From the NCBI GenBank assembly GCA_934613415.1, contig CAKTSY010000002.1, forward strand, positions 390,001 to 422,000: a stretch of DNA of 32,000 nucleotides, in the 5' to 3' direction. Source of the DNA: an uncultured Opitutales bacterium. GTDB lineage: Bacteria; Verrucomicrobiota; Verrucomicrobiia; Opitutales; Intestinicryptomonadaceae. Under the pieces are notes generated by a model that saw nothing but the letters and a program-made list of their open reading frames with translations, made no database searches and was not told the DNA's origin. Numbering within the stretch: position 1 is the stretch's first letter; each line of letters starts with the position of its first letter. This document shows positions 7,734 through 32,000 of this stretch, piece by piece. The translations under genes and the position numbers were made by a program.

Positions 7734-7920
7734 TTGTTGTTTTATCTTTCCGGTTTGCATCGAAGCGGTCGATAATCCCTAAATTTTCCGAAAAGAAACA
7801 ACAAAACGCCGCCTGCAAAATTCAGCAAAAGCCAAAGTTGCATACGGCAAAATTTTGTCCATATATAAAGGGAGGTTAACCCAAAATATATTCATAGTTC
7901 CTCTTCGGGAAGTTAGGACA

Positions 7921-8076
7921 TTTTTAACGCGCGTCTTCTGGCTATTTCCCATTTCGCTTTTGGGGCAAAAACCGCCTTTTACCTTCCCGCATGTGCAGTG
8001 GCTTAAAAGGCGTGTCGGAAAATTACAGCGGCGAGACCGCGCCCGAATTTAACGGGACTTCCGTTTGCGTTAAAAA
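7921..8076 (-). promoter_or_regulatory. cobalamin (B12) riboswitch
   Basis: The minus-strand RNA reads UUUUUAACGC-AAACGGAAGUCCCGUUAAAUUCGGGCGCGGUCUCGCCGCUGUAA...AAGCCACUGCACAUGCGGGAAGGU...AGCCAGAAGACGCGC-GCGUUAAAAA. It has a 10-bp closing P1 helix (8067-8076 pairs with 7921-7930). It also has the conserved GGAAG...AAAUyC...GCGG...CGCCGCUGUAA core, the GCCACUG...GGGAAGG element and a B12-box-like AGCCAGAAGAC (7928-7943). Confidence 0.85.
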
Positions 8077-8352
8077 CATTCGCCCAAAGTTTTTTGCATT
8101 GGGCGCATAGTATGGTAAGAACTATTCGGGCAATCTTTTATTAGCGTTTGATTATGTCAAGCGCATATTTCTATTTTTAGGGCTGCATATTGGGGTAAAA
8201 TTCGCAAAATTGTTTGACATAGTTATTCGATTTTTATACAGAGTTTGCCCACAAATGAAATGAACTGCGTTTTACGCGCTTAAATGGAATTTTGGAGGAA
8301 ACCCGTTGCTCTTGGCTTATATAGCCGTTGGGCGTTGATGTTTTTACAGACT

Positions 8353-10833
8353 ATGAAAAAGAAGTACATATTTATCTTTATAATTGCAGTGTGCGCTGTA
8401 TTTGCATTTTTTGCAAAAAGCAATTCGGATACCGACAAGCAAGCGGTTTGTTTGGACGGCGACGACTGGAAGCTTTCGTATGCAAAGCAGCCGTTTTCGG
8501 GAGCGGCAAAAAGCCCCGAAGAGTTTAAGCTGCTAAAAGACGTTAAAACCGTAAAGGCAAAAGTTCCCGGCAACTGCGAGCTGGATTTGCAAAAAGCCGG
8601 CGTTTTGCCCGACCTGCAAAAGGGCGACAATATATATTTGTTTAGACCTTTCGAGGGCTATCAGTGGCTGTATTCAAAGAAATTTAAAGCCCCCGATTTT
8701 AACGAAAAACAAAAGCTGTTTATAAACTTTGGCGGGATAGACACTTTGGGAGACGTTTTTGTAAACGGGCATCTTGTAGGCAGCAGCGACAATATGTTTG
8801 TTTCGCAAAAATTTGATATTAGCAATGTTGTAAACAAAGGCGTCGAAAATTTGCTAGAGGTTGTACTGCGCTCGCCCGTAATAGAAAGCGCAAAGTACGA
8901 CGACATTGCAGGCTCATCGGGCGGCAACCGTGCCGAGCTTATACATATAAGAAAAGCCCCTGCGTCTTTCGGGTGGGATATTCACCCTAGGCTTGTAAAC
9001 TGCGGCTTGTTTAAGTCGGTTTCTTTGCAGGAAGAAAACGAGATTGCGATTTCGGAATTTTACCCATTTACTTTGTATGTAGAGCCTTCAAAGAATAGGG
9101 CAATGCTGGCAATCGATTTAAAAATTCAAGCTCCTTTCGAAGAGCTAGACAAGCTTACCGTGAAAATTTCGGTTGGCAAAGACGGCAAGGAAATTGCTTC
9201 GTATACTAAAAAGCCTCTTTCGTACAATGTTAAAGACGCGCGCTGGATAAGCGGCGTAGACTTGTGGTATCCGCGCGGCTACGGCGAGCAACCGCTATAC
9301 GACATAAAAGTTGGGCTATTGGATAAATCCGGCAAAACGCTTGCCGAGTGCCAAAAGAAAATGGGCTTTAGAACCCTAAGGCTTGAATTTTCGGAAATAG
9401 AGCTAAGCGACGAGGCCTCTAAAAAAGTTACCACAAGCCGAAACGGCGAGGCCTTTGGCGATGTAGACGAAAATTCTCTTAAGGGCGAATTTAAGTTTTA
9501 TGTAAACGATGTTCCAATATTTATAAGGGGCACAAACTGGGTGCCGTTAGACGCCTCGCATAGCAGAGATTTGCAGCACGTTCAAAGCGCAATGGATATG
9601 CTTGTTGACTTAAACTGCAATATGGTTAGGTGTTGGGGCGGCAATGTGTACGAAAGCGAAAAGTTTTTCGACCTATGCGACAAATACGGCATTTTGGTTT
9701 GGCAGGACTTTGCAATGGGCTGCTCTGTTTACCCGCAAACCGAAGAGTTTTACAAAAAGATAAGAAAAGAGGTTGCCTTTCAGGTAAAGAGGCTAAGGCA
9801 CAGGACTTCGCTTGCATTATATGCGGGCAATAACGAAAACGACCAAGCCTATAACTGGCGCATAAGGGAAAAGATGTTTGCTCCGCAGCACGACACTTTA
9901 AGCCGCGATGTAATACCCGCGGTTATAAGGGAATACGACTGGATTATCCCATATTTGCCGAGCTCGCCGTATATGTCGGAAAAAACCGTTGTGCAAAATA
10001 AGAAATTTGCCCCGCCCGAAGCGCACTTGTGGGGGCCTAGGGGCTATTATAAAATTCCCTTCTACACAAACGCAATTTGCAGGTTTGTAAGCGAAATTGG
10101 CTATCACGGCTGCCCAAATAAAAGCAGCCTGCAAAAGATGATGGACAAAGATTATGTGTATCCGTTTGTAAAGGGCAAAGACTTTGAATTTAACAAGCAG
10201 TGGCAGTGCAAGGCGGTTATGCCCTATAGAGACGGCGACACCGAAGCTCGCCGCAATATGCTTATGGTAAACCAAATAAAGCACTTATTCGGCGAATGCC
10301 CAAAAGATTTAGACGAATTTATTTTTGCCTCGCAAAGCGTGCAAGCCGAGGCAAAAAAATATTTTATAGAGCACTGGCGCAGCCAAAAATTTGCCGCAAA
10401 AACGGGCATAATTTGGTGGAATTTGCGAGATGCCTGGCCCATTTTGTCGGACGCTATTGTAGACTACTACAATTCTAAAAAGCTTGCCTACTACTATATA
10501 AAGCGCGCGCAAAAAACGGTGTGCTGTATGGTAAACGACAAATTAGAGCTTGTTGCGGTAAACGATTCTTTAAAACCCGCAAAAGGAAGCGTAAAGGTTG
10601 TAGATATAGATTCTAACAAAGAATTGTTTAGCGGCGAATTTGCCGTAAATGCAAATTCTAAAGGCGTTATTGCAAAACTAAAGCAACCTACAGCGCAGGG
10701 AATGTTGCTTATAACGTACAAAGAGCAAAACGAAAAAGACGAAAATCTAAACCACTATATGTACGGCAAGCCGCCCTTTAAACTTGCCGGCTATAAAAAG
10801 TGGAACAAGGCTTTAAAGATAGTAAGAGACTAA
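8353..10833 (+). CDS. glycoside hydrolase family 2, beta-mannosidase-like (826 aa), secreted or membrane-anchored
   Basis: The start is taken at MKKKYIFIFIIAVCAVFAFFAKS (signal/anchor) rather than the track's 8284. GH2 beta-mannosidase-type motifs are present: CNMVRCWGGNVYESEKFFDLCDKYGILVWQDFAMGC, the acid/base region YAGNNEN and the nucleophile region FVSEIGYHGCP. Confidence 0.85.
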   Translation: MKKKYIFIFIIAVCAVFAFFAKSNSDTDKQAVCLDGDDWKLSYAKQPFSGAAKSPEEFKLLKDVKTVKAKVPGNCELDLQKAGVLPDLQKGDNIYLFRPFEGYQWLYSKKFKAPDFNEKQKLFINFGGIDTLGDVFVNGHLVGSSDNMFVSQKFDISNVVNKGVENLLEVVLRSPVIESAKYDDIAGSSGGNRAELIHIRKAPASFGWDIHPRLVNCGLFKSVSLQEENEIAISEFYPFTLYVEPSKNRAMLAIDLKIQAPFEELDKLTVKISVGKDGKEIASYTKKPLSYNVKDARWISGVDLWYPRGYGEQPLYDIKVGLLDKSGKTLAECQKKMGFRTLRLEFSEIELSDEASKKVTTSRNGEAFGDVDENSLKGEFKFYVNDVPIFIRGTNWVPLDASHSRDLQHVQSAMDMLVDLNCNMVRCWGGNVYESEKFFDLCDKYGILVWQDFAMGCSVYPQTEEFYKKIRKEVAFQVKRLRHRTSLALYAGNNENDQAYNWRIREKMFAPQHDTLSRDVIPAVIREYDWIIPYLPSSPYMSEKTVVQNKKFAPPEAHLWGPRGYYKIPFYTNAICRFVSEIGYHGCPNKSSLQKMMDKDYVYPFVKGKDFEFNKQWQCKAVMPYRDGDTEARRNMLMVNQIKHLFGECPKDLDEFIFASQSVQAEAKKYFIEHWRSQKFAAKTGIIWWNLRDAWPILSDAIVDYYNSKKLAYYYIKRAQKTVCCMVNDKLELVAVNDSLKPAKGSVKVVDIDSNKELFSGEFAVNANSKGVIAKLKQPTAQGMLLITYKEQNEKDENLNHYMYGKPPFKLAGYKKWNKALKIVRD

Positions 10834-19172: not shown

Positions 19173-20435
19173 ATGAACAGCATAAACAACAAAGTTATAG
19201 CAGCCTCGCTAGGCTCGATTTTAACTATGGCTACTTTTGCCAATGCACAAGAAGCCGTACAAACTCTGGCAAAAGAGGAAGCGCCGCAGTCGTGGTACGA
19301 ACGCGACAGCCTCTTTTTGGCTTCGGCAACCGAAAGCGTTTCCGAAAAGACGGGCTTTACCCCCGCCCTTACCTGGACGGGAGAAGTTTGGGGCGACGTT
19401 TCCAATAAAAACAATATGAATTCGTTTGTAGACTCGCTCTTTACTATAGAAGTAGAGCAGGATTTGTCGGTATTGTCGGGCAAAGACAATATGGGCAGAA
19501 TCGGCGTTAGCGCATTCTACTACAACCAAACCCACGGCGGCGCGTTGGAAAATGTAGACTCTTCGCAAGGCTACATAAGCAACATTGTTGCCGGCGATAT
19601 GGCAAGGGTTTTCGAAATCTACTACGCCAACGAATTCGAAACAAAGGCTGGTACTTTCGGCTTTAGAATAGGCCAGCTTGCAGCCGACGAAGACTTTATG
19701 GGTATGGATTATTCCGACACATTCTTGAATTCGTCTTTCGGCGCAATGCCCAACATTGCTCCCGGCAATTTGTTCTCGCAATACAACGTTGCAACTCTTG
19801 GTTTGGTTGTATACTACACCTACGACAATTTCGACGCAACGTTCGGCGTATATAACGGCAACATCGGCGAAGACATTTCTTCGAACAACGGTTTCGACTA
19901 TAAAAATACTTTCGACACGGTTGCATTTTGGTATCAGTTCGGCTACAACTACAAAGTTGGCGGATTGGACGGCCGCGTAATGGTTGGTGGCAACTATCAC
20001 AGCGACCCGAGCAAGGCTAACTTCGAACAAGGCACAAAAAGCAACTTCTATTCGTTCTATGCAGGCATTCAGCAGGCACTGGTTAACGACGACGAAGGCA
20101 ACGCAAAATTCGGCGTATACGGCAGAGTTGGCTTCGTTCCCGATGCAGAACAATCGGACAACAACTTCTATGCCGACTTCGGCTTTAACTGGTTTGCCCC
20201 CATTCCCTGCAGAGAAAACGACGTATTTGCGGCAGGCTTTTCGGTTATAGAAAACGAAAGAACGGCCCGCGACGACTATGCGCACTACGAAGGTACTTTG
20301 GAAGTTACATACAGATGCCAAATTACCCCCGCAATCTCGTTCCAGCCCGATTTCCAAATTTACTTTAACCCGGCAACTCGCGACGACTGCGGCGCAGTAT
20401 ATGTAGCGGGCGCAAGGCTTGAAGTTGTATTCTAA
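19173..20435 (+). CDS. outer-membrane beta-barrel porin, OprB (carbohydrate-selective) family-like (420 aa)
   Basis: Signal peptide ...LTMATFANAQE, alternating aromatic/Gly beta-strand pattern and terminal ...ARLEVVF (C-terminal Phe). The OprB assignment rests on overall resemblance only. Confidence 0.6.
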   Translation: MNSINNKVIAASLGSILTMATFANAQEAVQTLAKEEAPQSWYERDSLFLASATESVSEKTGFTPALTWTGEVWGDVSNKNNMNSFVDSLFTIEVEQDLSVLSGKDNMGRIGVSAFYYNQTHGGALENVDSSQGYISNIVAGDMARVFEIYYANEFETKAGTFGFRIGQLAADEDFMGMDYSDTFLNSSFGAMPNIAPGNLFSQYNVATLGLVVYYTYDNFDATFGVYNGNIGEDISSNNGFDYKNTFDTVAFWYQFGYNYKVGGLDGRVMVGGNYHSDPSKANFEQGTKSNFYSFYAGIQQALVNDDEGNAKFGVYGRVGFVPDAEQSDNNFYADFGFNWFAPIPCRENDVFAAGFSVIENERTARDDYAHYEGTLEVTYRCQITPAISFQPDFQIYFNPATRDDCGAVYVAGARLEVVF

Positions 20436-20478
20436 AATTTCCTTTTTTGGTACGATTTTTATCTGTTGAACAATCTTC

Positions 20479-20510
20479 ATGCGCACTCTTTTAGGGTGCG
20501 CATTTTTTTT
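20479..20510 (+). terminator. rho-independent terminator after the porin gene
   Basis: Stem ATGCGCAC (20479-20486) / GTGCGCAT (20496-20503), running into T8. Confidence 0.65.
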
Positions 20511-20961: not shown

Positions 20962-22173
20962 TTATTTGCCCAACAAAGTTTCGTAAAGTTTTATATAGTC
21001 TAAAAACCTGTCTTTTTCGTCGAATTCGGCAAGTGCCTTTTTTCGGCAAGCTTCGGCGTAGTTAGATTTGCCATTTTTTAATATTTCGCCTATTGCATTC
21101 AACAAGGCGGTTAAGTTGCCTTGTTCAACTATAATCCCCGTCTTAGCGTTTATAGATTCTGGGCAACCGCCCGTGTTGTACGACACAACTGGTGTTGCGC
21201 ACGAAATCGCCTCGCGATTCACCATTCCAAGAGCTTCAAGGTAGGTCGGGTTTGCAAATACATCGGCAATCGAATATAGCTTTGCCAGTTCAGCTTGGTT
21301 TTCGGTACGTTCTATGCCTATTATATTGTGTTTTGCCAGCTCGCTTTTTTGGGATTTATTTACGCCCACTAAAACTATTTGCGCGTCGTTTAGCCTTTGG
21401 GCAAGATTTATAAAATCGTTGTAGCCTTTGCTTTGGCTCCACACATTGGCAACGCCCAAAACTATTTTTTTATCGGGCAAGGCAAACTTTGCTTTTATAT
21501 TTTTTAAGTCTGTTTGCGGTGCAAAAAGTTTGGTGTTTATGCCGTTGTGTATTACAACGCTTTCGCGGTTTGAAAAAATCGACTTTTTAAGAAGATTGTC
21601 TAGCCAGTGCGAAACGGGCACCATTGTAAGATTTTTTGCATTTTGCGCAAAACGCTTTTTGCATAGAAAATTGTTTTTTGAATTGTCGAACAAAAGCGAT
21701 TTTGGGTAGTCGTGCTTTTTGGGGCAGTTGTGGCAAAGAGTTTGCCACTTTTTGCAGTTGTCAAAATGCGCGCAATGCCCCGTAAACGACCAGCAATCGT
21801 GCAAAGTCCAAACAACTTGGGTGTCGATTTTTAAAAGAAATTCGAATAAGTCGGGGCAGTTTAAATAATATCCGTGCAGGTTGTGAAGGTGTATTATGTC
21901 GGGCTTTTCGGCTTTTATAAGGCTAATTAAACGCTTTGTTGCAAGTTTGGAAAACGGCGAATCGCTGTCGAAAAAGCGTGTCCAAGCAACATTTGCAAAA
22001 ATTTCGGCATTGCTTGCCAACTTTGCTTTTTTCAGCCGGCTAATTCTTTCTTTTCTGCCGAATGCCGATATTGCCTTCCAGCCGAGATTTTGGGCTGCAA
22101 CGCCAATGCTTTCTACAATCTTTCCCGTAGAGCCGCAGTTGCCAACCGTATTTACCTGTAGCAAAGTTTTCAT
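20962..22173 (-). CDS. glycosyltransferase, GT4 (GT-B fold) family (403 aa)
   Basis: Start taken at MKTLLQVNTVGNCGSTGKIVE (ATG at 22173). The C-terminal half has the GT1/GT4 pattern ...ADVFANPTYLEALGMVNREAISCATPVVSYNTGGCPE. The 69-codon upstream extension in the track ORF has no homology-like features and crosses the divergent promoter. Confidence 0.8.
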   Translation of the reverse strand: MKTLLQVNTVGNCGSTGKIVESIGVAAQNLGWKAISAFGRKERISRLKKAKLASNAEIFANVAWTRFFDSDSPFSKLATKRLISLIKAEKPDIIHLHNLHGYYLNCPDLFEFLLKIDTQVVWTLHDCWSFTGHCAHFDNCKKWQTLCHNCPKKHDYPKSLLFDNSKNNFLCKKRFAQNAKNLTMVPVSHWLDNLLKKSIFSNRESVVIHNGINTKLFAPQTDLKNIKAKFALPDKKIVLGVANVWSQSKGYNDFINLAQRLNDAQIVLVGVNKSQKSELAKHNIIGIERTENQAELAKLYSIADVFANPTYLEALGMVNREAISCATPVVSYNTGGCPESINAKTGIIVEQGNLTALLNAIGEILKNGKSNYAEACRKKALAEFDEKDRFLDYIKLYETLLGK

Positions 22174-22309
22174 AATACTTATAATAAGTATGCAAAATTG
22201 CACTTTACAATGCAAGCAATCTATGGCGCAATTATTTATTGCATTTTTAAAAATTTGCCGGTGAAATGCGAAAACTATAACACAAGCTTGCACTCTAAAT
22301 TTGTTTTCT

Positions 22310-23424
22310 ATGTACAACAAAAACACCCTAGCTCGCCAAAGCAATTTCGAATTGTTGCGGCTTCTTGCCATTTTCAGCATTATTATTTCGCACGTTGCAT
22401 TCCACGGGTGCGATATACGGTCTATAGATTATATGATGCCTTCGGCGAGCGCGCTGTTTGCAAAACTATGTACTCTTGGCGGCGAATTTGGCGTGGATTG
22501 CTTTATTTTGATTTCGGGATATTTCCTTTGCGGGCAACAGTTTAAGCTTTCAAGGCTGGTAAATTTGTTTGTGTTTGTATTTTTATATTCGGTTTCGTTG
22601 CTGTTGGTTTATATCGTAATAGTCAAATGGTTTAATTTGCCCCTTACATTTTCTGGCAAAGACATTCTAAAGTGCGTTTTCCGATATCTATGTGGACATA
22701 TTGGTTTATAACGGCATACGCAATATTGTATGCAATGTCAGCACTGTTAAACGCTGTTATCGACAATATAGACGAAAAGGTTTACAAGACGCTTTTGGTA
22801 GTTGGTTTTTTATATGTTTGCATAAGACCAATGCTTTTTGTTTCCGATACTTCTGCTATTGTCACTTTTGTTTTCCTATATCTGCTCGGCGCATTTGTTA
22901 AGAAACATAAAATAAAGATGCTTGAAAAGCGACCGCTTTGCATAAATATTTGCACGCTTTTTTGTGCGGTTTCATTTACCTTGCTTGCAATATGTTTGGC
23001 CGTTGTGTTTGGTCAAAGGCTTTTGCTTAAAGCAGCATCGTATCCTATGGCAAACTACAGCTTTTTTATGGTTGTATTGTCGCTTTCAATATTTGCGGTG
23101 TTTAGCAGATTGCAGATTAGTTCACATTCTGTAAACTATGTAGCAAAATCGGTTTTTGCGGTTTACATAATACACGAACACCCCTTGCTTAAAGAGATTA
23201 TCTGGCAATATATTTTCCCTTTAAAAGATTATATGGGTTCAAAATGGTTTCTTTTTGAATTTGTGTTTGCTTGCGCGGCTTTGTTTATTGCTTGCTTTGC
23301 GGCTGATTTGCTGCGGCGAAAGGTTGCGGAAATTTTGCGCATAAATGTTTTATATTCAAAACTTATCCAAAAAATAACCCACGTTATAGAAGCTTTTTTC
23401 GGGTTTTTAACGTCTAAAATTTGA
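22310..23424 (+). pseudogene. acyltransferase family 3 (membrane O-acyltransferase, OafA/WecH-like) with a 1-nt frameshift
   Basis: The N-terminus MYNKNTLARQSNFELLRLLAIFSIIISHVAFHG is typical of acyltransferase-3. The frame changes at the T4C2 tract 22677-22682: ...KDILKCVF | PISMWTYWFITAYAILY.... The two track ORFs (22301-22711 and 22672-23424) join into one ~371-aa, ~10-TM protein if one base is added. Confidence 0.7.
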
Positions 23425-23533
23425 GGCTGCAAAATTTTAGAGTGAGTTTTTTAACATATTGCATATAAATAAGTTAAAAATATTTAATTTTTTTGTTGAT
23501 GTGGGCAAATCGCTTGGGTAGAAACTCTCGCGT

Positions 23534-24250
23534 ATGAAAAAAACTGTTATATTTTGTTCGGTGGTAGTTGCCCTCGCTTTGATAGCGTGTGCTGCAATTT
23601 TGGTTAAACCTAGCATTGTTTTGCGCAATGGTAGCGGGGTAAGGGTAAAGGGAACGGCTGTTGCACGCGTGCAAAGCGACGCTATGGCGTGGTCGGGCTC
23701 GCTAGACGGTGAACTAAAACCCACAATAAAAGAGGCGGTTTGCCAGGTGGAAAAGCACGCCGCTTTGGCAAAAGAGCTTTTTGCAAAAAACAAACTGGGC
23801 AATGTGGAATTTAGCACAACCCGTTGGTTTACAACCTACAAAAAAGTTGACGGCAAAGAGACAAACGAAATAGAAGGATATACCGCTTCAATATATCTTT
23901 CGTTTAAGCCCAAAACTTTGGAGCAGGCAAAAAAACTTTCCGAGTGTATTGGCGAATTGCTTAAAAACAACGTTTCGGCATATGACAACGGAACAAGCTA
24001 CTTCTATACAAAGCTTGAATCGCTTAAAATGCAGTTGCTTGAAAAAGCCGCCGCCAACGCAAAGGAAAGGGCGCAAAAACTGGTTTCGGGCAGCGGTTCT
24101 AAATTGGGCGGCGTAATTTCGGCCTCGCAGGGCGTATTTCAAATCACTCCCCCGCTTTCGACCAATACAAGCGATTGGGGCACCTACGATACTACTACCT
24201 GCGAGAAAGACGTAAAGTGCGTTGTAACTATGGAGTTTGCCACAAAATAA
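23534..24250 (+). CDS. SIMPL/DUF541-like periplasmic protein (238 aa)
   Basis: N-terminal anchor/signal MKKTVIFCSVVVALALIACAA. The overall pattern, including ...AAANAKERAQKLVSGSGSKLGGVISASQGVFQITPP, resembles SIMPL-domain (BP26-like) proteins. The assignment is tentative. Confidence 0.45.
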   Translation: MKKTVIFCSVVVALALIACAAILVKPSIVLRNGSGVRVKGTAVARVQSDAMAWSGSLDGELKPTIKEAVCQVEKHAALAKELFAKNKLGNVEFSTTRWFTTYKKVDGKETNEIEGYTASIYLSFKPKTLEQAKKLSECIGELLKNNVSAYDNGTSYFYTKLESLKMQLLEKAAANAKERAQKLVSGSGSKLGGVISASQGVFQITPPLSTNTSDWGTYDTTTCEKDVKCVVTMEFATK

Positions 24251-24272
24251 TTTAAAAAAATTGGGTACACTT

Positions 24273-24311
24273 GGCGGCATATCCGTTTTTTTTTGATATG
24301 CCGCTTTTTTT
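24273..24311 (+). terminator. rho-independent terminator
   Basis: Stem GGCGGCATATC (24273-24283) / GATATGCCGC (24295-24304), followed by T7. Confidence 0.65.
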
Positions 24312-24428
24312 GCGCGCCAAATTTTGGAAAAAGGCACAAAAAGGCAAGTTTTTGAAAGGAACAACTATTTACAGCTTTGAAAATTTTTTGTACCATATTG
24401 CGAAAACAAAAATTCAAGAAAACAAACT

Positions 24429-24995
24429 ATGGAGCTTAAGGAATTTTTAGATTATGTAAAACTGCAAAAACCGCTTAATACGTCCGAAATTTTTGCCTTT
24501 ATGAACAAGGCAAGCGAAAGGGCGCGCAGCATTACTTTTAAGCTTAATTCGGCATACAAAACGCAAGGCGAAATTAGGGAAATTTTGTCGGAGTTGTTCG
24601 GGTATAAGGTAGAAGAAATCCTTAGGGTATTCCCTCCTTTTTACAGCGACTTTGGGCAAAATATAAAGATTGGCAAAAACGTTTTTATAAACGCGTGCTG
24701 CCAGTTTCAAGACCACGGCGGCATAAGCATTGGCGACGGCTGCCAAATTGGCCACAGCGTTGTTTTTGCAACGCTTAACCACGGCATTTTGCCCGAGCAA
24801 AGGCAATATACAATTCCGGCTTTTATAACGCTTGGCAAAAATGTGTGGGTAGGCTCTAACAGCACAATTTTACAGGGCGTAAATATTGGCGACAACGCCA
24901 TTGTGGCCGCAGGGGCAGTTGTTGTAAAAGACGTTCCAGCAAACACAATAGTTGGCGGCGTTCCTGCAAAAGAGATACGGAAAATCTGCCAATAG
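24429..24995 (+). CDS. sugar O-acetyltransferase, maltose/galactoside acetyltransferase (Maa/LacA)-like left-handed beta-helix (188 aa)
   Basis: Mac-type N-terminal region, then hexapeptide repeats ([75 protein letters not shown]). Confidence 0.85.
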
Positions 24996-25080
24996 TTTTT
25001 TTGCTTTTTACGAAACCTTTTTGTTTATTGGGTGTTTTATTGGGCATAAACCAATCCCAAAAAAATAAAAAGGTTTTTAT

Positions 25081-26052
25081 ATGAAGATGAAAAAATATGT
25101 ATTGTTCGCGGTTGTTTCTGTCTTTGCATGCTGCGCTTTTGCAGGGCAAATCAACAAAGAGGCAAAGCAGTTTAAATATAGCACAACAATAGAAAAGGAG
25201 CGCCCGCAACTAAACGAAGCCACAAAAAAGCTGATTGCGGCATATCGCAAAAACCCCACAAAGGAAAATTACAACGCGCTTAAAAAGCAGGTAGAGCTTA
25301 ACTACGACGCCGTTATTGCGCGCAAGCAGGCAAAGTTGCAGGAATTGAAAAAAACGGCAAAACATGCAAGCAAAATAGCCGAGATGGAGGAGATTGTAAG
25401 CGACGTTATTAAAGACCGCCAAAACCGCATAGAGCAAAGTATGCGCCGTTTTACAGACCCCCGCTTAAGGCCTAACGCCCGCAGTGTAAGCGGCGGATTT
25501 TTGCCCGTGTTGGGCGCGGCGCAAAACGTTAACATTGCCTATACGCCCGTTACAAACGCGCAATTTGCAGAATTTGTAAAGGCGACAAACGCAAAAGCTC
25601 CAAAAGATTGGCAAAACGGCGCAGTTGCTTCGGGTAAGGAAAATTTGCCCGTTGTAAACGTTTCGTACGAAACTGCGGTAAAATATTGCATCTGGCTTTC
25701 CGAAAAAGACAAAGGCGCAACATACCGCTTGCCAACCGAAACGGAATGGGAATATGCCGCGGGCCACATGCCCAAAGACGCCGATTTTAACTGCGGCGTT
25801 CAAAAGTCGCTAAGCAATGTGTTTGCATACTCGAAAACGCTTTCGGCAAGCGGCGCAATAGATATGTGGGGCAACTGCTGGGAAATGACTTCTACTTGTG
25901 TAAGCAAAAACGGCAAAACGCAAATAAAGGTAAAAGGCGGCGCATTCGATTCGCCCAGAATGAGTTGCAGAACCGAATATAGAGACGAAACGCGCGATGC
26001 AAATTCGGCCTACGGCAATGTAGGGTTTAGGGTTGTGCGCCAAACCAAATAA
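25081..26052 (+). CDS. formylglycine-generating-enzyme (SUMF1/FGE-sulfatase, DUF323) domain protein with N-terminal signal and coiled-coil region (323 aa)
   Basis: Signal MKMKKYVLFAVVSVFACCAFAG. FGE-domain motifs are YRLPTETEWEYAA, MWGNCWEMT, KGGAFDS and NVGFRVVR. Confidence 0.75.
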   Translation: MKMKKYVLFAVVSVFACCAFAGQINKEAKQFKYSTTIEKERPQLNEATKKLIAAYRKNPTKENYNALKKQVELNYDAVIARKQAKLQELKKTAKHASKIAEMEEIVSDVIKDRQNRIEQSMRRFTDPRLRPNARSVSGGFLPVLGAAQNVNIAYTPVTNAQFAEFVKATNAKAPKDWQNGAVASGKENLPVVNVSYETAVKYCIWLSEKDKGATYRLPTETEWEYAAGHMPKDADFNCGVQKSLSNVFAYSKTLSASGAIDMWGNCWEMTSTCVSKNGKTQIKVKGGAFDSPRMSCRTEYRDETRDANSAYGNVGFRVVRQTK

Positions 26053-26097
26053 GCTTATTACCCAAAAGCATTAAAAAACATTCAAAGCGTGCAAAGT

Positions 26098-26631
26098 TTA
26101 TTTGCGCGCTTTTTTTGGCATTGTAAAGTGCGTTGTGTCTATATGCTCGGTTTTAAGCAGCTTTATTTTGTTTTCCAAGCCGCCGGCATAGCCCGTAAGG
26201 TTGCAGTTTGCACCCATCACCCTGTGGCAGGGAACTATAATAGAAATATTGTTTTTGCCGACCGCGTTGCCCACGGCCTGTGCCGACATCTTTTTTATGC
26301 CGCATTCCTTTGCGATTTCTTCGGCAAGGCGGCCGTATGTTGTTGTTTTTCCGTAGGGAATTTTCTGCAAAAGCTTCCAAACTTTTAGCTGAAACTGCGT
26401 GCCCGACATCTTAATTGGAACCTTAAAATTCGGCTCTTTGCCCGAAAAGTAAATATCCAGCCATTTTTTTGAAAGGCTCAATATTTTCGAATTTTTTTCG
26501 GGAAGGCCTTTCAAATTGCAAGGGTAGTGTTTTTCGTCGGCAATCCAAAGCCCGCATAATGCACAGTCTTGGGCGGCTAAAAGCAGCTCGCCTAAAATGC
26601 AATCGTACCTGCATAAAGAAATATTCAGCAT
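26098..26631 (-). CDS. ogt: methylated-DNA--protein-cysteine methyltransferase (177 aa)
   Basis: Active site IIVPCHRV, plus TYGRLAEEI and VGNAVGKN. ATG at 26631 is preferred over the TTG-initiated extension to 26718. Confidence 0.9.
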   Translation of the reverse strand: MLNISLCRYDCILGELLLAAQDCALCGLWIADEKHYPCNLKGLPEKNSKILSLSKKWLDIYFSGKEPNFKVPIKMSGTQFQLKVWKLLQKIPYGKTTTYGRLAEEIAKECGIKKMSAQAVGNAVGKNNISIIVPCHRVMGANCNLTGYAGGLENKIKLLKTEHIDTTHFTMPKKARK

Positions 26632-26879
26632 GCCCGAAATTTTTTTAATGGCAGGCACAATGGCAACAAAATTTTTATTTGTTGGTTTTACAAAAAATTT
26701 TTGTGTTATTTCGCACAAACCCCAAACTTTTTAAGCTAAAAGCGAAAGTTTTTCGCAATTTTATGGATAGTTTTTTCCAAAAAAAAGCCACATGCAAAAC
26801 TGCCAATAAAGCTGATAAATAGGCAGATTAATCGTTTTTTGTTGCAAATGGAAATTTTTAGCCCAAACTCTGGTCGTGT

Positions 26880-29258
26880 ATGAAAATATTTAAGCTTAAA
26901 AAAATGTTTGTTGCCGCAATTTTTGCGGTGCTTTGCATGGGGTGTTCCGATTTGCAAAAGGCGGATATTGCCGCCGAAAAAAAGGCGGTTGAGTCTGCAT
27001 ACCTATGCCCGCAAATGTACGAAACCGCAGATTTTGCCGAGTTTAAAGACGGCAAGATTTTTGCCACAAACGAAAAGTCGGCAAAAGAATACGACGTTAT
27101 GTTTAAAACAAAGCCCGTAAAATTTAAGCCGAACACGCACTATGTTTTTAATATGCTTTCCGACGTAAAATCGCTTAAGGGCAAAAGCCGTTTGCAGATT
27201 TTTATTTGGAAGATTGCGCCCAATAAAAAACCCGAATTGGTAATGGACATTTCGCAGCACGATAGCGACGGCGAATTTTTGCCGCGACGCGCCGAATTTT
27301 TTACGGGCGACGGCGACGCAAACTTTAAAATATCCTTTAACGCCGCGGGTAAAATTTCGGCAAAGGTTAAGGATATAGAAATTAAAGAGGGCAAAATAGA
27401 GACCTTTTATGCCGCAACAAAAAACCCGAAGCCCTACAAGCTAAACCGCAAAACATTGCCTACGGGCGCAAGGGACTTTGTTGTCGATATGCCAAACAAC
27501 CCGAAGGGCGCAACGGTTAACGCCGCCGATTTCGGCGTAAAAGCGGGCGAAAAAGATTTGATTACAAAACTGAACAATGCAATAGCCCACTGCAAAAAAA
27601 TAGGGGCGGCAAAGCTTGTTTTAGACAGGGGCACCTATTATTTCGACGAGGAAAAGTCGGTTGAAATGAAGGGTATAAGCGACTTCGAATTCGACGGCGG
27701 CGGCTCTACGTTTGTCTACTACAAAACAAACGGCAAAGTAAACAATATGAACATACAAAACTGCCAACGCATTAAAGTGCACAACTTTAATATGGATTGG
27801 GACTGGCAAAAGTCGCCGCTGGCAAGCATTGTAAAACTTGTTGCAATAAACGACAAAGGCAAAGACAAGTATGTGGATTTCGAATTTACCGAATACGACG
27901 ACTTCCCAAAAAAAGACTGCAAAATAATAAATTTGTCGCTGTATAACGAAAAAACGCAGACGGTAGGCATGGAGGGGTCTTTCGACGTATATTACGATTT
28001 CGGCGTAGGCAACGAGGTTATAGTTCCGAAAAAGGAATGGCTAAAGGGCAATTTGCTTAGGCTGCATTTGCCCAAAATACATAAAAAATACAGGGTAGGC
28101 CAGTTCTTTAGAATGCAGCACTACTACTATACAATGGGCGGCATTCACATGAAAAACAACAGGCACCTTACGCTTGAGAATGTAAATATATGGTCGTGCT
28201 GCGGCTTTGCCTTGGCCGTTTACGACTACCAGCAGTATTGGCAGTTTAAAAACGTAAATATTGTAAAGCCCAAAAATGCCCATCGCAGAGCCATAACATG
28301 CACGGCAGACCACTGCAACATAAGCAACACATTGGGCTTTTTTAAGATGGAAAACTGTGAAATTTCTTTCGGCGCCGACGACTGCATTAACTTTAACGAC
28401 AAGTCGGCATACGCCACCCGAAAAGACGACTACACTTTGCAGACCCGCGGCATGATGGGCTTTACAAAAAGCGCCTACAACAAGGGCGCAAATGTGGAAC
28501 TAAGGCACGACGATTTTTCGCCGGCAAACTATACGGGCAGGATTGTGGACAGAAAAGAAATAGACGCCAAAAAGGGCATATATTTGCTTTGCTTCGACAG
28601 AAAACTGCCAAAGGCGAAAAACACGGGCTTTGTTTTGTTCAACCGCAATTTCGGCACAAGGAATATGATTGTGCGCAACTGCTATTTCCACGACAACAGG
28701 GCAAGGGGCGTAATTATAGAGTGTAGCGACGTAACTTTGGAAAACTGCCGCTTTAAGCATAACGAGCACGGAGCCATGAAAATAGAGTCGGGCTACACAA
28801 ACCACTTGTGGAGCGAGGGCTTTGGCGCAAACAACATAGTAATACGCAACTGCACTTTCGAAGACGGCTGCCCCGACGGCGTTGTAGACTACAAAAAGGC
28901 AAGGGATATTTTTATAGGCTCGTATTCAAGGCGCAATTCGTTCCAATACCAAACAATGTACCCGATTGTAGACGGGCTTTTGTTCGAAAACAACACCTTT
29001 ATAGACACATACGGTGTTATGGCAACGGTTTCGTCGGCGGGCAATGTTGTGTTTGCAAACAACACGTTTATTGCCAAAACGCCGCGCAAAAACGAAAAAG
29101 ACTACAGGGGCTCTATCTTTGTGGCGTTTGCAAGCAATGTAAAGGTGGTAAACAACACTTGGGTGGAATCGCCTTTGGTGAAAACCCCCGGGGTGTTTGT
29201 AGACAAAGACAAAGTTAAAGGCTTTGTTTTTGAGGGCAACAGGCTTGTAAAACCCTAG
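26880..29258 (+). CDS. large lipoprotein with right-handed parallel beta-helix (pectate-lyase-3 / NosD-like) domain; putative glycan depolymerase (792 aa)
   Basis: Lipobox-like ...AVLCMGCSD. Pectate_lyase_3-like entry VNAADFGVKAGEKDLITKLNNAIAHCKKIGAAKLVLDRGTYYF. Repeated beta-helix rungs follow (NVNIWSCCGFA, NCYFHDNRARGVIIECSDVTLENCRFKH, NIVIRNCTFEDG, LLFENNTFID, VVFANNTFIA, VKVVNNTW). Confidence 0.65.
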   Translation: MKIFKLKKMFVAAIFAVLCMGCSDLQKADIAAEKKAVESAYLCPQMYETADFAEFKDGKIFATNEKSAKEYDVMFKTKPVKFKPNTHYVFNMLSDVKSLKGKSRLQIFIWKIAPNKKPELVMDISQHDSDGEFLPRRAEFFTGDGDANFKISFNAAGKISAKVKDIEIKEGKIETFYAATKNPKPYKLNRKTLPTGARDFVVDMPNNPKGATVNAADFGVKAGEKDLITKLNNAIAHCKKIGAAKLVLDRGTYYFDEEKSVEMKGISDFEFDGGGSTFVYYKTNGKVNNMNIQNCQRIKVHNFNMDWDWQKSPLASIVKLVAINDKGKDKYVDFEFTEYDDFPKKDCKIINLSLYNEKTQTVGMEGSFDVYYDFGVGNEVIVPKKEWLKGNLLRLHLPKIHKKYRVGQFFRMQHYYYTMGGIHMKNNRHLTLENVNIWSCCGFALAVYDYQQYWQFKNVNIVKPKNAHRRAITCTADHCNISNTLGFFKMENCEISFGADDCINFNDKSAYATRKDDYTLQTRGMMGFTKSAYNKGANVELRHDDFSPANYTGRIVDRKEIDAKKGIYLLCFDRKLPKAKNTGFVLFNRNFGTRNMIVRNCYFHDNRARGVIIECSDVTLENCRFKHNEHGAMKIESGYTNHLWSEGFGANNIVIRNCTFEDGCPDGVVDYKKARDIFIGSYSRRNSFQYQTMYPIVDGLLFENNTFIDTYGVMATVSSAGNVVFANNTFIAKTPRKNEKDYRGSIFVAFASNVKVVNNTWVESPLVKTPGVFVDKDKVKGFVFEGNRLVKP

Positions 29259-29283
29259 CATACAAAAGCGCAAAATACTATGC

Positions 29284-29322
29284 AAAGCGGCTCGGCCTTT
29301 AAAAGGGCAAAGCCGCTTTTTT
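29284..29322. terminator. terminator hairpin between convergent genes
   Basis: Stem AAAGCGGCT (29284-29292) / AGCCGCTTT (29311-29319), extending into T6. The A-rich left flank allows function on both strands. Confidence 0.5.
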
Positions 29323-29336
29323 GCGTTTAGCTTGGG

Positions 29337-29855
29337 TTAGCCCATTGCTATGGTCAGCAAACTGTGGTAAAAATCGGCATACTCGCTTTCGCTTATTGGG
29401 CGTTGGGTGCTTAAAATTGCCATAGGGCACTTTGGCCCATTGCCGTAGCCTGGGTGGGCGTGCTTGTGCGGCGTTTCAAAAAAGCCGCAGCGTTTGTAAA
29501 AGCGCAGCCTTTTTGCCGAAATTTCGTCTACAACATAGTCTACTTCAAGCACAAAAATTTTGGGGCTGCCTGCCAAAACATCTTGCATAATTTTGCCGCC
29601 AATGCCGCAGTTTCGCATAGTGTCGTTTACTGCAAGGTGCTCTATATACACGCAGTTTTTAAAATCCCAAAACGACACAAACCCCAAAAGCGCGCGGTTT
29701 TGCGTATAGCAAAAAAGCGAAAATTTTTTGTCGGCTATTGCCTTTTGCAACTCGGCGTCTGTTCTTTGCTCGCAAATAGGGAAGCTTTTTTTGTAAAGCT
29801 CTAAAAATTGCGGGTAAATTTGGTGCAGGGTGCTTTCTATCTTAATTTTTTGCAT
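29337..29855 (-). CDS. GNAT-family N-acetyltransferase (172 aa)
   Basis: Acetyl-CoA binding motif A: IEHLAVNDTMRNCGIGGKIMQ (R/Q-x-x-G-x-G/A), followed by ...RLRFYKRCGF. Confidence 0.8.
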   Translation of the reverse strand: MQKIKIESTLHQIYPQFLELYKKSFPICEQRTDAELQKAIADKKFSLFCYTQNRALLGFVSFWDFKNCVYIEHLAVNDTMRNCGIGGKIMQDVLAGSPKIFVLEVDYVVDEISAKRLRFYKRCGFFETPHKHAHPGYGNGPKCPMAILSTQRPISESEYADFYHSLLTIAMG

Positions 29856-29965
29856 GGAATGGAATATATATTCTTAATATCCGCAAAACTTGGTCAACAA
29901 GATTAAGCTAGTATGTTTGCCCAAAAAACCTTGCAAGAACTCGCATTTGCCCCTACGCTTTTTGC

Positions 29966-30634
29966 ATGAAAGCTATAATGTTTGCCTTGTCTTTTCTTGT
30001 GTATTTTTCGCTAAATGCCGCGCAATTTTTGGGGCAAAAGGGTGGCGAGTTTGAATTTTGCGAAACTTTAGAAATTGCCTATCCCGAAAATATGCCAGAT
30101 TCCGAAAAGCCCGAATTTGCAAAAAAAGCCATAGCCCAAATAAATTCGCCTATTGTAAGGCAGCTTATTGTTTGGGCGGAAGGCGTAAAATGCGAAAGTT
30201 CAAAAAATTTCACAAAAGATTACGGCAACTTGTCTGCCTGCGATATAATCGAAAAAAACTTTTCAATTTGCGTAGATAAAAAATTGCAAATCGCCACAGT
30301 GATTTTTCGCCACAAAAATAAGAACACCGCAAGTTTTATATGTTTTGACTTGGCAAGGGCTGCTGCTTTTCACTCAAAAAACGCATCTAACGAATGCCTA
30401 ACAGCCCAGCTAGAGCTTACAAAAAAAGCCTACAAGCTTTTGGCAGAGCGCAAAAAACTTTTTAGCGAATTTAAACAGGCAAAGGCCGAAAACAATGCGC
30501 AAAAGGTTGCCGAGCTAGAAAAGAAATTGCGCCAAGAACCATTCTCGCGCGAAAAAACAAAACAAATAAAAGAACAATTTAAGACGTTTAAAAATGCGCC
30601 GCAATTTTGGCTGCTGCAAAATGCAAAGCCCTAG
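29966..30634 (+). CDS. secreted hypothetical protein with Lys/Glu-rich C-terminal helical region (222 aa)
   Basis: Signal peptide MKAIMFALSFLVYFSLNAAQ. No recognisable motif. Its TAG overlaps the convergent integrase-remnant stop in a shared CTAG (30631-30634). Confidence 0.5.
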   Translation: MKAIMFALSFLVYFSLNAAQFLGQKGGEFEFCETLEIAYPENMPDSEKPEFAKKAIAQINSPIVRQLIVWAEGVKCESSKNFTKDYGNLSACDIIEKNFSICVDKKLQIATVIFRHKNKNTASFICFDLARAAAFHSKNASNECLTAQLELTKKAYKLLAERKKLFSEFKQAKAENNAQKVAELEKKLRQEPFSREKTKQIKEQFKTFKNAPQFWLLQNAKP

Positions 30635-30943
30635 TTAAAAAACTTTTCGGACTCAAAGCGCGAAATGTTGCGCATGTTAATGTAGCGACTGCATAAAAGC
30701 ATTTGGTTGCTGTGCCCCATGTTTAGCTGTAGCCTTGGCAGGTCTTTAAAACGTTTGGCAAAAAAGCTGGCGTAGGTGTGGCGCAAAACGTCGGCCTGCC
30801 ACGGCAACGCTTTGCGGCTAAAACCGCTGTTTTGCCTTATGTTCTGCCAACGGCGTTCCCAGTTTTTCGGGCATATTTTGCCAAAACCTGTGCCACGCGT
30901 AAAAATCACCCGCAAACCCTTTGTTTATCCCGTAATCTTCCAT
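30631..30943 (-). pseudogene. remnant (C-terminal ~95-105 codons) of a tyrosine recombinase / phage-type integrase
   Basis: The catalytic-domain tail reads ...NWERRWQNIRQNSGF...WQADVLRHTYASFFAK...LQLNMGHSNQMLLCSRYINM, giving the R-H-x-x-R/H...GH...Y pattern. An in-frame stop lies at 30925-30927. A further short piece reads in another frame across an A5 tract (~30865). The N-terminal 150-250 codons expected for an integrase are absent. Confidence 0.7.
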
Positions 30944-31016
30944 AATCTCCCCCTATATCCCGTTATTCAAACCTTCTGTCACTGATCATTGTGGAGCGGA
31001 TTGGCGGCGAATGGGC

Positions 31017-31048
31017 AAAAAAAATTTCACACGGGTTCGTGTGAAATT
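31017..31048 (-). terminator. strong 12-bp hairpin with U-tail on the minus strand (orphan terminator-like element at the compositional boundary)
   Basis: AAATTTCACACG (31021-31032) - GGTT - CGTGTGAAATTT (31037-31048) is a perfect stem. On the minus strand the stem is followed by the complement of the A-run 31017-31023. No minus-strand ORF lies upstream of it. Confidence 0.45.
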
Positions 31049-31247
31049 TAAAACGCGGAGAGAGAGAGGGAATACACTGAAATTCACAAGTCGTTTATTA
31101 CCAGCAAGCAAATTTTAACGGCAAGCGTCAGTTGCATTTAGTTGTTTCATTCTTATTTAAGTAATTGTTTAATGTAGTAAAAAAGAGTCTATAACTTGAC
31201 GTTCAAAAAAAATCTGCTATTTTTGAGATTGCGATAAAGAAAGAGAG

Positions 31248-32000
31248 ATGGCATCTAAAGACCTAAATTTTCAGATAGAATTTTGCGCTGATTCAAAAGG
31301 ATATTTTGATAGAAAATGCCCTAAATGTGGATTGATTTTCGGAATAAAGTTAGCGGATTACAAATTACATAAAGGCAATATATTTTGCCCAATGTGTGGT
31401 TATTCGGAATCTTACAATAATAAAATATGGTTTACAGATAGACAAATATCTGAGATGAATGATCGAATTCGCAAACAAGCTACAGAATGGATTCACGATC
31501 GATTTAATGCTATTTTTAACAAATATCGGCATAATAGGAACGATATTATCAGTATATCGTATAAGCCAGAAAGACGTCCTATATTTAAAAATTATCCAAT
31601 TTTACAACCCAAAGAGTGGGATATAGAGATAAAATGTCAAAAATGCGGAAAGTCCTATAGTGTTATTGGGTCTGCTTTTTTCTGTCCGTTTTGTGGAGAA
31701 AACAATATAGAAGATATCTTTGAAAAGTCACTTATTGTAATTCGCCATAAGTTAAATTTTGAAAAAATATTTTATCATGACCTAAATAATATGACAGGAA
31801 ATGTCGCAATTGATTTTTCCAGATCTATTTTGGAACATTGTATATCTGAAGTCGTTTCATGTTTTCAGAAATTTGCTGAAACAATATTAAAAAACTTCAC
31901 TCAAGATCCTATACGTGTAAACGATTTTCAAATTATAAGAAGAGGGAATGAATTGTATGATAAATATACTGGGCATTCATATTTAGATTATATTTCCAAA
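31248..32000 (+). CDS. 5' part (251 codons, open at window end) of a protein with two CxxC...CxxC zinc ribbons and an alpha-helical continuation; unknown function
   Basis: It is absent from the supplied ORF track because it has no stop in the window. I translated ATG 31248 onward with no stop to 32000: MASKDLNFQIEFCADSKGYFDRKCPKCGLIFG...IFCPMCGYSE...IKCQKCGKSYSVIGSAFFCPFCGENN...FQIIRRGNELYDKYTGHSYLDYISK. A purine-rich AAAGAAAGAGAG lies just upstream, and a possible promoter is TTGACG (31196-31201)-N16-TATTTT. GC is about 27-30%, against about 48% for the rest of the window. Confidence 0.6.
   Translation, partial: MASKDLNFQIEFCADSKGYFDRKCPKCGLIFGIKLADYKLHKGNIFCPMCGYSESYNNKIWFTDRQISEMNDRIRKQATEWIHDRFNAIFNKYRHNRNDIISISYKPERRPIFKNYPILQPKEWDIEIKCQKCGKSYSVIGSAFFCPFCGENNIEDIFEKSLIVIRHKLNFEKIFYHDLNNMTGNVAIDFSRSILEHCISEVVSCFQKFAETILKNFTQDPIRVNDFQIIRRGNELYDKYTGHSYLDYISK

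Follow-up and report, generated by a model that had tools for sequence, protein, structure and literature searches.

The window analyzed here is a stretch of 32,000 nucleotides of contig CAKTSY010000002.1, from an uncultured gut bacterium of the Opitutales (Verrucomicrobiota), and its last kilobase differs sharply in composition from the rest. Our analysis supports the view, to which we would give a probability of about 0.7, that the DNA starting at 31,075 belongs to a 3.2-kb defense cassette, acquired horizontally and lodged in the 3′ end of a tRNA-Ser gene, and forms its left end. The left 926 bases of the cassette (31,075–32,000, plus strand) lie in the window; the whole, traced by identity to an overlapping contig, GC content, and tetranucleotide composition, extends to 34,300. 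It carries an EcoRI-like restriction-modification (R-M) pair and a gene for a protein of 317 amino acids (aa). An earlier reading of the window from its letters (the original prediction) had placed the edge of an acquired island here, beside a decayed integrase, and had guessed that defense genes would follow; the guess was a good one, the cargo consisting of an R-M system and a candidate defense gene.

Composition and Extent of the Low-GC DNA

GC content is 30.0% at 31,067–32,000 (934 bases), compared with 43.9 ± 2.7% in windows of the same size within 1–31,066 (z = −5.1); this is the minimum of the window, the runner-up among same-size windows being 34.0% at about 22,561. Sliding-window composition gives a window mean of 43.4% GC and values of 33.4% and 28.6% for the final two 500-base windows. 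The drop described by the original prediction is real, and its hand counts for three sample lines (48.3%, 23.3%, and 26.7%) are accurate. The tetranucleotide distance between cassette and host is 0.596, compared with 0.265 ± 0.028 (maximum, 0.359) for host windows, so that the sliding-window GC and k-mer check proposed earlier finds a deviation far beyond the host range.

Downstream extension and annotation, also proposed earlier, were carried out through P0001, a full-length 317-aa match (100% identical) to the open reading frame (ORF) cut off by the window edge; P0001 is recorded on 17 contigs, and a later look-up read 19 contigs carrying it. A metagenome contig (L001) is 100% identical to the window over 21,248–32,000 and adds 10.2 kb; positions beyond 32,000 are given here as window equivalents (L001 coordinate + 21,247). 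The low-GC patch proves to be limited to 31,067–34,247 (31.9% GC overall), corresponding to the cassette at 31,075–34,300. Past it, GC content returns to 43–50% in a recombinase region and 51% in phage late genes.

The Left Border and the tRNA-Ser Remnant

Comparison contigs were found via the flanking 222-aa gene and a 41-aa ORF next to it and were aligned to the extended window. Four of them (L015, L017, L019, and L022) have a flank 98.7% identical to that of the window and other cargo from 31,066–31,073; L015, L017, and L019 track the window sequence up to those positions and then diverge. The L015-type cargo encodes an AlwI-type endonuclease and two Dam-class methylases, besides two unknown genes and an intact tyrosine integrase; phage-like genes come next. 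Within the species, then, the DNA from 31,067–31,074 on differs wholly between strains, and relatives have an intact tRNA gene at this point. Foreign, strain-variable DNA begins where the GC content falls, at 31,067–31,075, as had been supposed.

To the left of this point, beyond a tRNA remnant described below, lies the native 3′ flank of the tRNA-Ser gene (30,989–31,054, minus strand), which is conserved across Opitutales and includes the terminator hairpin of the tRNA. A hairpin scan of species-representative genomes gave nine loci in six Opitutales/Verrucomicrobiota assemblies (human gut and sheep rumen), and a scan of metagenomes gave 13 more. The segment is conserved at 91–99% identity over 67–80 bp in 20 of these 22 loci, the outliers being L026 (79.7%) and L027 (only 40 bp), and in most of them its equivalent directly adjoins an intact tRNA-Ser gene. 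In 13 non-redundant empty sites (six genome loci and nine metagenome loci, two of the latter duplicating genome loci), the hairpin and about 45 bp of left flank abut a complete tRNA-Ser with the anticodon GGA, TGA, or CGA. Six further loci are occupied: in L026, L029, L048, L051, and L055 a tRNA remnant is followed by foreign DNA, and in L050 by a serine-recombinase element.

The hairpin itself (31,022–31,049, minus strand), identified by terminator scan and folding, has a perfect 12-bp stem, a 4-nt loop, and a run of eight T residues after it on the minus strand, as befits the intrinsic terminator of the tRNA-Ser gene; its predicted folding energy is −17.4 kcal/mol (z = −6.5 relative to shuffled sequences). 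Next to it, the displaced 3′-terminal ~20 nt of the tRNA (31,055–31,074, minus strand; GCGGAGAGAGAGAGGGAATA on the plus strand) form the left attachment (att)-type repeat. The intact tRNA-Ser(TGA) that serves for comparison, at 4564–4651 in L018, ends in ...GGGTTCGAATCCCTCTCTCTCCGCCA. The last 15 nt of its body, TCCCTCTCTCTCCGC, recur exactly at the module edge (see below) 5,240 bp away, which identifies the (GA)n run at 31,058–31,068 as the displaced tRNA-Ser 3′ end. The original prediction had noted both the perfect hairpin and the (GA)n run, and both are real; it had, however, assigned them to the AT-rich side as part of the island, whereas they are the terminator and remnant of the tRNA and lie on the side of the host. 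An integron-like reading, with a recombinase and hairpin-bounded cassettes, was also considered and was dropped: the hairpin is a tRNA terminator that empty sites have as well, and what there is of the recombinase is incomplete.

A conserved sequence of about 190 nt is found downstream of each of the three tRNA-Ser isoacceptor genes (GGA, TGA, and CGA) in several Opitutales species (L024, L025, L028, L030, L032, and others). It lies left of the hairpin, corresponding to about 30,800–30,988 of the window; in the species of the window an integrase relic takes its place left of 30,989. Rfam has no family for the hairpin region or for this element of the relatives.

Terminator, tRNA remnant, and integrase relic together form a 465-bp conserved module (30,604–31,074, minus strand), delimited by contig alignments. 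It is present at two loci of the species, and different strains have different cargo next to it. The second chromosomal locus, seen in L018 (whose sample also yielded a window-type contig) and in the similar L023, has the module in a different chromosomal flank, at 94.5% identity over 30,604–31,074 and 92.7% over 30,604–31,066, respectively. L005 and L021 part from the window sequence exactly left of 30,604 and have the window cargo joined to the flank and module type of the other locus, an arrangement that fits recombination between two copies of the module. Contig ends cluster at 30,724–31,037 from either side, many assemblies breaking there because the module exists in two copies. GNAT genes lie beside the two loci and are not close paralogues.

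In L018 the module is followed by a 5.2-kb type III R-M pair (PADLOC E = 1.9e-154 and 6.4e-136) and then by the intact tRNA-Ser(TGA), so that 15-bp exact direct repeats, TCCCTCTCTCTCCGC, stand on either side of a cassette.

The Right Border, the Prophage, and the Order of Insertions

The right border (34,248–34,311) is a stretch of 64 bp that is 100% identical to L018 and consists of a second terminator hairpin followed by TGGCGGAGAGA, which represents the final 11 nt of the tRNA, CCA included. Beyond this point L018 has the remainder of the tRNA; in the window locus the tRNA is cut by ACATTTGGCATAAC..., and a serine recombinase gene follows 717 bp further on. The cassette thus brings its own terminator and a replacement tRNA end on the side proximal to the tRNA, the classical arrangement of elements that integrate into tRNA 3′ ends. 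A search for direct repeats of the left border at the far end had been proposed earlier. A tRNA 3′ end does stand at both borders, and the repeat amounts to 9 bp (GCGGAGAGA) in the window locus and 15 bp in L018.

The recombinase (649 aa; 35,028–36,977, plus strand) has Resolvase, Recombinase, and Zn-ribbon recombinase domains in Pfam and matches the phrog_95 integrase (E = 1.6e-95); it is an integrase of the phage type. A scan of viral contigs with its sequence gave no match. Farther along, a prophage protein of at least 578 aa has tail-fiber matches at 1e-6. In L050, which has no cassette, the hairpin is followed by AAAAC, GCGGAGAGA|ACATTTGG, and the recombinase region (95.9% identical over 2.7 kb). 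The recombinase element thus uses the same point in the tRNA with or without the cassette, which means that cassette and prophage are independent elements; L050 is decisive for separating the two. Since the left remnant keeps about 20 nt of the tRNA, more than the prophage junction does, the cassette arrived before the prophage in the lineage of the window.

The following order of events would account for the locus. An older element at the same tRNA would have left the integrase relic, by tandem accretion. The cassette would then have arrived by recombination of the tyrosine-integrase type within the last ~20 nt of the tRNA, with an integrase presumably supplied in trans because the cassette encodes none. 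The native tRNA 3′ end and terminator stand displaced on its left, and its own terminator and tRNA end replace them on its right. A prophage with a large serine recombinase was the later arrival and severed the tRNA thus rebuilt, at 11 nt from the 3′ end; at its far side such an insertion would be expected to join phage DNA, at ...|GAGGGATTCGAACC, to the remaining 77 nt (5′ part) of tRNA-Ser.

The Integrase Relic

The integrase fragment next to the GC drop is a relic of a tyrosine recombinase, consisting of its C-terminal ~96 codons (ICPKNW...LRHTYAS...GH...Y...FFN) in a single frame (30,634–30,921, minus strand; Pfam and tblastn). A 94-codon ORF (30,631–30,915, minus strand) matches Pfam PF00589 over profile positions 105–167 of 172 (E = 3.7e-4), at a score of 20.8 bits, under the cut-off of 27.1. 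Longer members of the family (P0034, P0041, and P0048) align by tblastn over 30,634–30,921 with 54–57% identity (E = 1e-39 to 2e-34). Within the catalytic domain, the relic covers the C-terminal third; it keeps LRHTYAS...GH...Y, but the N-terminal domain is missing, together with the Lys and the first Arg of the catalytic set. The internal frame problem described earlier is not there: the ~96 homologous codons form one unbroken frame with no frameshift. A 41-aa ORF that public assemblies annotate as a gene (30,818–30,943, minus strand) overlaps the relic in another frame; it has no Pfam match and no similarity to the intact integrase, and it is probably not a real gene.

The decayed integrase of the original prediction is accordingly a genuine C-terminal relic, but it is not the island's own, since it lies outside the cassette, in the module at 30,604–31,074. 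It stands outside the tRNA repeat, on the chromosomal side, and reads in the direction of the tRNA. The simplest reading is that it is the remainder of an earlier element at the same tRNA. We considered whether it might be a copy of the intact L015 integrase and rejected this, as its similarity to the C-terminus of that protein is only 28% identity (E = 1e-5). All 24 of its database relatives (P0032–P0055), from Opitutales and Akkermansia and 54–77% identical to the query, are short (56–167 aa), including some on contigs of 100–480 kb; a full-length member of the family was sought among these 24 and none was found. Two genomic contexts (L038 and L040) show no clear pattern.

The Restriction-Modification Cargo

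The second and third genes of the cassette encode a type II R-M pair. The EcoRI-family endonuclease starts at an ATG at 32,329 (plus strand), and its called ORF spans 32,519–33,160. The match to Pfam PF02963 (EcoRI) is strong (E = 7e-111), but it starts at profile position 49; upstream lies ATGGCAAAAAAAGAACC, with a frameshift at codon 5 in a run of seven A residues (L001 11,082; window-equivalent 32,329). Removal of one A restores a 276-aa protein that aligns with EcoRI over 1–275 (E = 4e-115) and has the catalytic PD...(D/E)xK residues (PD...EAK) and AGNAIERSHKN. The adjoining N6/N4 methyltransferase gene (33,163–34,020, plus strand) loses its frame in a run of seven T residues (33,902–33,908; L001 12,655–12,661), just ahead of motif I (FxGxG). 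Addition of one T brings back DFFSGSGTTG and extends the ORF to about 34,110, giving a product of 316 aa, which can be aligned with M.RsrI (E = 1e-99).

The pair is therefore most likely an inactive, dead copy of a well-known EcoRI/M.RsrI-like system; the specificity would be GAATTC. Phase variation of the two genes was considered and set aside: there is no sign of switching, and the run of seven A residues is the same in all 12 contigs checked, which looks like fixed decay instead.

The 317-aa Protein

The first gene of the cassette (31,248–32,201, plus strand; first 251 codons, 31,248–32,000, inside the window) was seen by the original prediction as a new ORF on the AT-rich side. It begins with an ATG at 31,248 and, completed in L001, encodes 317 aa that include two zinc ribbons and a C-terminal HEPN-like domain. 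A promoter-like site (TTGACG, a 16-nt spacer, TG, and TATTTT; 31,196–31,223, plus strand) precedes it, a candidate from a consensus scan alone. The reading frame is intact, and all contigs with the gene encode the identical protein. The AT-rich side had been named as the first place to look for a novel system. This holds for the first ORF only, the one uncharacterized gene of the cassette; the R-M pair is EcoRI/M.RsrI-like and frameshifted.

Among 25 aligned relatives, with identities as low as 29%, the eight Cys residues of two CxxC...CxxC zinc ribbons are invariant, and so is R264-H-x3-H269 in FQRRHLLEHN, a sequence in keeping with the HEPN Rx4-6H motif. An AlphaFold2 model (pLDDT 85) has a helical C-terminal half, and eight of its nine top Foldseek matches in the PDB are HEPN/DUF86 proteins, including the toxin SO_3166, with weak E-values of 0.04–0.4. 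The family comprises 379 cluster representatives at E <= 1e-30; a scan of genome contigs with the protein yielded no relative. Five of six genomic contexts read have R-M neighbors (EcoRI-like, type I, MmeI-like, MjaI-like, and NspV-like), and in the type I context a 69%-identical homologue lies between hsdS and hsdR. The model and the gene neighborhoods suggest that the protein may be an R-M-linked RNase providing a back-up defense of the abortive-infection type, with roughly even odds for the enzymatic claim.

Related Cassettes

The ends of the cassette recur at other loci. The left-end sequence (31,075–31,145, plus strand, from cross-locus alignment) includes a repeated motif, AGTTGCATTTAGTTG, at 31,130–31,144. 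Over 31,067–31,145, identity to the window is about 90% in L029, L048, and L051, 88% in L056, and 75% in L026; similar AGTTGC..AGTTG motifs are found in L018, L023, and L055. At the right end, the ~110 bp preceding the 64-bp piece have 82% identity in L029 and a recognizable similarity in L056.

Between these ends the cargo differs from locus to locus. Where the window cassette has the EcoRI-like pair and the 317-aa gene, L029 has another type II pair, and L056, in a host flank of 58% GC, an MjaI-like R-M system with an 86%-identical homologue of the 317-aa protein. L018 carries the type III system described above. In L026, McrB-like, Dcm, and N6 methylase genes give way to phage late genes that share 91% identity with the ones downstream of the window. 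No recombinase is encoded by any of the short cassettes; none of the three genes of the window cassette is one. The short cassettes may be moved in trans, or they may be reduced tRNA-Ser prophages that swap cargo via conserved flanks; either would fit the data.

Other Features of the Window and the Prophage

The region of about 1,010 bases between the methyltransferase and serine recombinase genes (34,021–35,027) is non-coding. Its part from the cut tRNA to the recombinase gene (34,312–35,027; L001 13,065–13,780; 717 bases) is GT-rich, contains the inverted pair CTAACTACCCCCC ... GGGGGGGGTAGTTG, and is a possible location for the attachment sequence of the phage or for regulatory sites. Between the recombinase and the phage lysis/tail genes, a second small defense or moron patch of the prophage (37,151–39,297) comprises an AAA_14/DUF4143 ATPase (37,151–38,407, plus strand; PADLOC PDC-S01, E = 1.5e-118) and an orphan Dam-type methylase of 30% GC (38,419–39,297, minus strand). 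Three small genes and then the tail-fiber-like protein follow from 39,455 onward on the minus strand. L004 differs at the start of the tail-fiber gene: its 9,467–9,568 against window-equivalent 40,424–40,478 shows about 100 extra bases with a 55-bp overlap, which suggests repeat-length variation at this gene.

Within the window, the flanking 222-aa hypothetical gene (29,966–30,634) has its final ~10 codons inside the 465-bp module, which begins at 30,604; the arrival of the module therefore altered the C-terminus of its product. A second strain-variable indel lies at 24,289–25,794, a segment of 1.5 kb missing in L015-, L017-, and L019-type strains; it contains a hexapeptide acetyltransferase and the N-terminal part of an FGE-sulfatase-domain gene, in place of which those strains have a 103-aa remnant. 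Another low-GC stretch (22,501–23,500; 33–35% GC) includes an Acyl_transf_3 gene (22,301–23,424) that is read here as two overlapping ORFs (136 and 250 aa) and is a single gene of 371–373 aa in L015 and L017. At 19,173–20,486 two antisense ORFs overlap over nearly their whole length: one of 420 aa on the plus strand, an OprB porin in public annotation, and one of 421 aa on the minus strand, probably a shadow ORF. A cobalamin riboswitch (Rfam RF00174, 56 bits) is found at 7,911–8,087 on the minus strand, upstream of minus-strand genes at 6,882–7,760 and beyond.

Weighing the Explanations

The explanation closest to the one that we prefer is that the cassette is the leftover of a larger tRNA-Ser prophage or integrative and conjugative element (ICE), which lost its other genes by deletion and kept its att ends and defense genes; the differences in cargo would then result from homologous exchange between conserved flanks (the module at the left end, the tRNA and terminator at the right). 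It agrees with a horizontally acquired cassette on everything except mobility. The left end of L026 (75% identical) is joined directly to defense genes and then to phage lysis and tail-fiber genes, which match the ones downstream of the window at 91% identity; in L015-type strains the R-M genes occupy the interval from the same junction to an intact tyrosine integrase, beyond which lie phage-like genes. The 465-bp module and the 64-bp right end offer ample homology for exchange, and L005 and L021 pair the window cargo with the flank of the other locus as module recombination predicts. At least four loci (window, L018, L029, and L056), however, have cassettes of 3–5 kb with related ends, different R-M genes, and not one phage gene, and repeated independent reduction is a less economical account of these than a lineage of small elements. 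We consider the deletion account unlikely, while taking it seriously.

That the AT-rich genes are instead morons of the serine-recombinase prophage, the GC drop being simply the prophage end, is a far more doubtful proposal. Defense genes between an integrase gene and an att site are common in prophages, and cassette and recombinase gene are contiguous in all cassette-bearing contigs, at both chromosomal loci. Between them, however, stand a terminator and a tRNA 3′ end identical to those beside the intact tRNA of the prophage-free L018; in L050 the same recombinase junction (GGAGAGA|ACATTTGG) immediately adjoins the native tRNA end, the cassette being absent; and the cassettes of L018, L029, and L056 occur without this recombinase. 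Hardly worth entertaining is the idea that nothing was acquired and that the last kilobase is a native low-GC gene of the kind found at 22,501–23,500: against that precedent, same-species strains with a 98.7% identical flank carry different DNA from 31,067–31,074, relatives have an intact tRNA there, and the tetranucleotide distance is far outside the host range.

Several observations weigh against an acquired, mobile cassette as we have described it, or against the role given to its first gene. No integrase acting on the cassette was found, and neither an excised circle nor an empty site of the same strain was seen, none of the 13 empty sites, nor the cassette-less L050, being from an identical strain. 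Cassette and serine-recombinase prophage are contiguous in 12 of 12 cassette-bearing contigs, and the prophage is seen at its left junction only, its far end and the 5′ part of the tRNA lying beyond the sequence read. The repeat of the window locus is just 9 bp, because the prophage truncated the tRNA, and repeats of 15 bp, the length in L018, also arise by chance in AT-rich DNA, so that the argument rests on position and not on length. For the 317-aa protein, the HEPN assignment comes from weak Foldseek E-values and a short motif; no Pfam HEPN family matches at E <= 1, and a PDB profile search returned no HEPN chain.

A wider proposal, more tentative than the acquisition of the cassette itself and with the odds against it, is that these loci represent an undescribed family of small integrase-less tRNA-Ser defense cassettes of gut and rumen Verrucomicrobia, with conserved ends (AGTTGC repeats on the left; a terminator and tRNA end on the right) and exchangeable R-M cargo. 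Such cassettes might be moved in trans by integrases of co-resident prophages, and the two-zinc-ribbon/HEPN gene might be a new stand-alone RNase defense that backs up the accompanying R-M system in the manner of PrrC.

Comparison with Known Systems

As a dead textbook system, the R-M pair contributes nothing new: the restored endonuclease aligns with EcoRI over its full length and the restored methylase with M.RsrI (type II, GAATTC), from which the cassette differs in that both its genes are out of frame at homopolymer tracts. The 317-aa protein is of greater interest, as a member of a widespread uncharacterized family that accompanies several R-M types and is a testable candidate for an RNase defense. 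Its residues 5–152 match PDC-M14A (152 positions, E = 7e-18), part of the PADLOC phage defense candidate PDC-M14, from end to end, whereas the HEPN-like C-terminal half is not covered and no adjacent gene matches other PDC-M14 components, the neighbors matching R-M models only; a literature search gave no text on PDC-M14.

PrrC and RloC are latent RNases of the anticodon nuclease kind whose genes lie within type I R-M loci; prrC sits between hsdS and hsdR. The 317-aa protein resembles them as a predicted HEPN-type RNase encoded beside R-M genes, one homologue occupying the exact position of prrC. Unlike them, it has no ATPase/NTPase domain, carries two zinc ribbons at its N-terminus, and shows no detected sequence similarity, and its family is found beside type I, II, and IIL systems alike. 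In HEC-08, a protein found by embedding in defense loci, an N-terminal HEPN domain (DUF3644) is followed by C-terminal zinc fingers, and phage defense is lost on mutation of the Rx4-6H histidine (Payne et al., bioRxiv 10.1101/2024.01.29.577857). The 317-aa protein likewise joins HEPN and zinc-ribbon modules, but in the reverse order, and it matches neither Pfam DUF3644 nor a PADLOC HEC-08 model.

As a structure, the locus is of an ordinary kind, with elements layered at a tRNA integration hot spot and R-M genes as cargo, and its interest is modest: one uncharacterized candidate defense gene and a family of integrase-less cassettes. It does provide a base-resolved case of a tRNA gene stacking defense DNA (relic, R-M cassette, and tRNA-cutting prophage) in a little-studied gut phylum. 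Comparable arrangements are the tRNA-linked islands with tandem accretion and the integrase-less cis-mobilizable elements (CIMEs) beside ICESt1/ICESt3 in Streptococcus thermophilus. With these the locus shares insertion in a tRNA 3′ end, a tRNA-end repeat at the distal border, an adjacent relic integrase, and a small cassette that has att-type ends and R-M cargo and no recombinase of its own. It differs in its gut Opitutales host and tRNA-Ser target, in that mobilization in trans is only inferred here, and in having cassette ends (~80 and ~170 bp) that are conserved around differing R-M genes.

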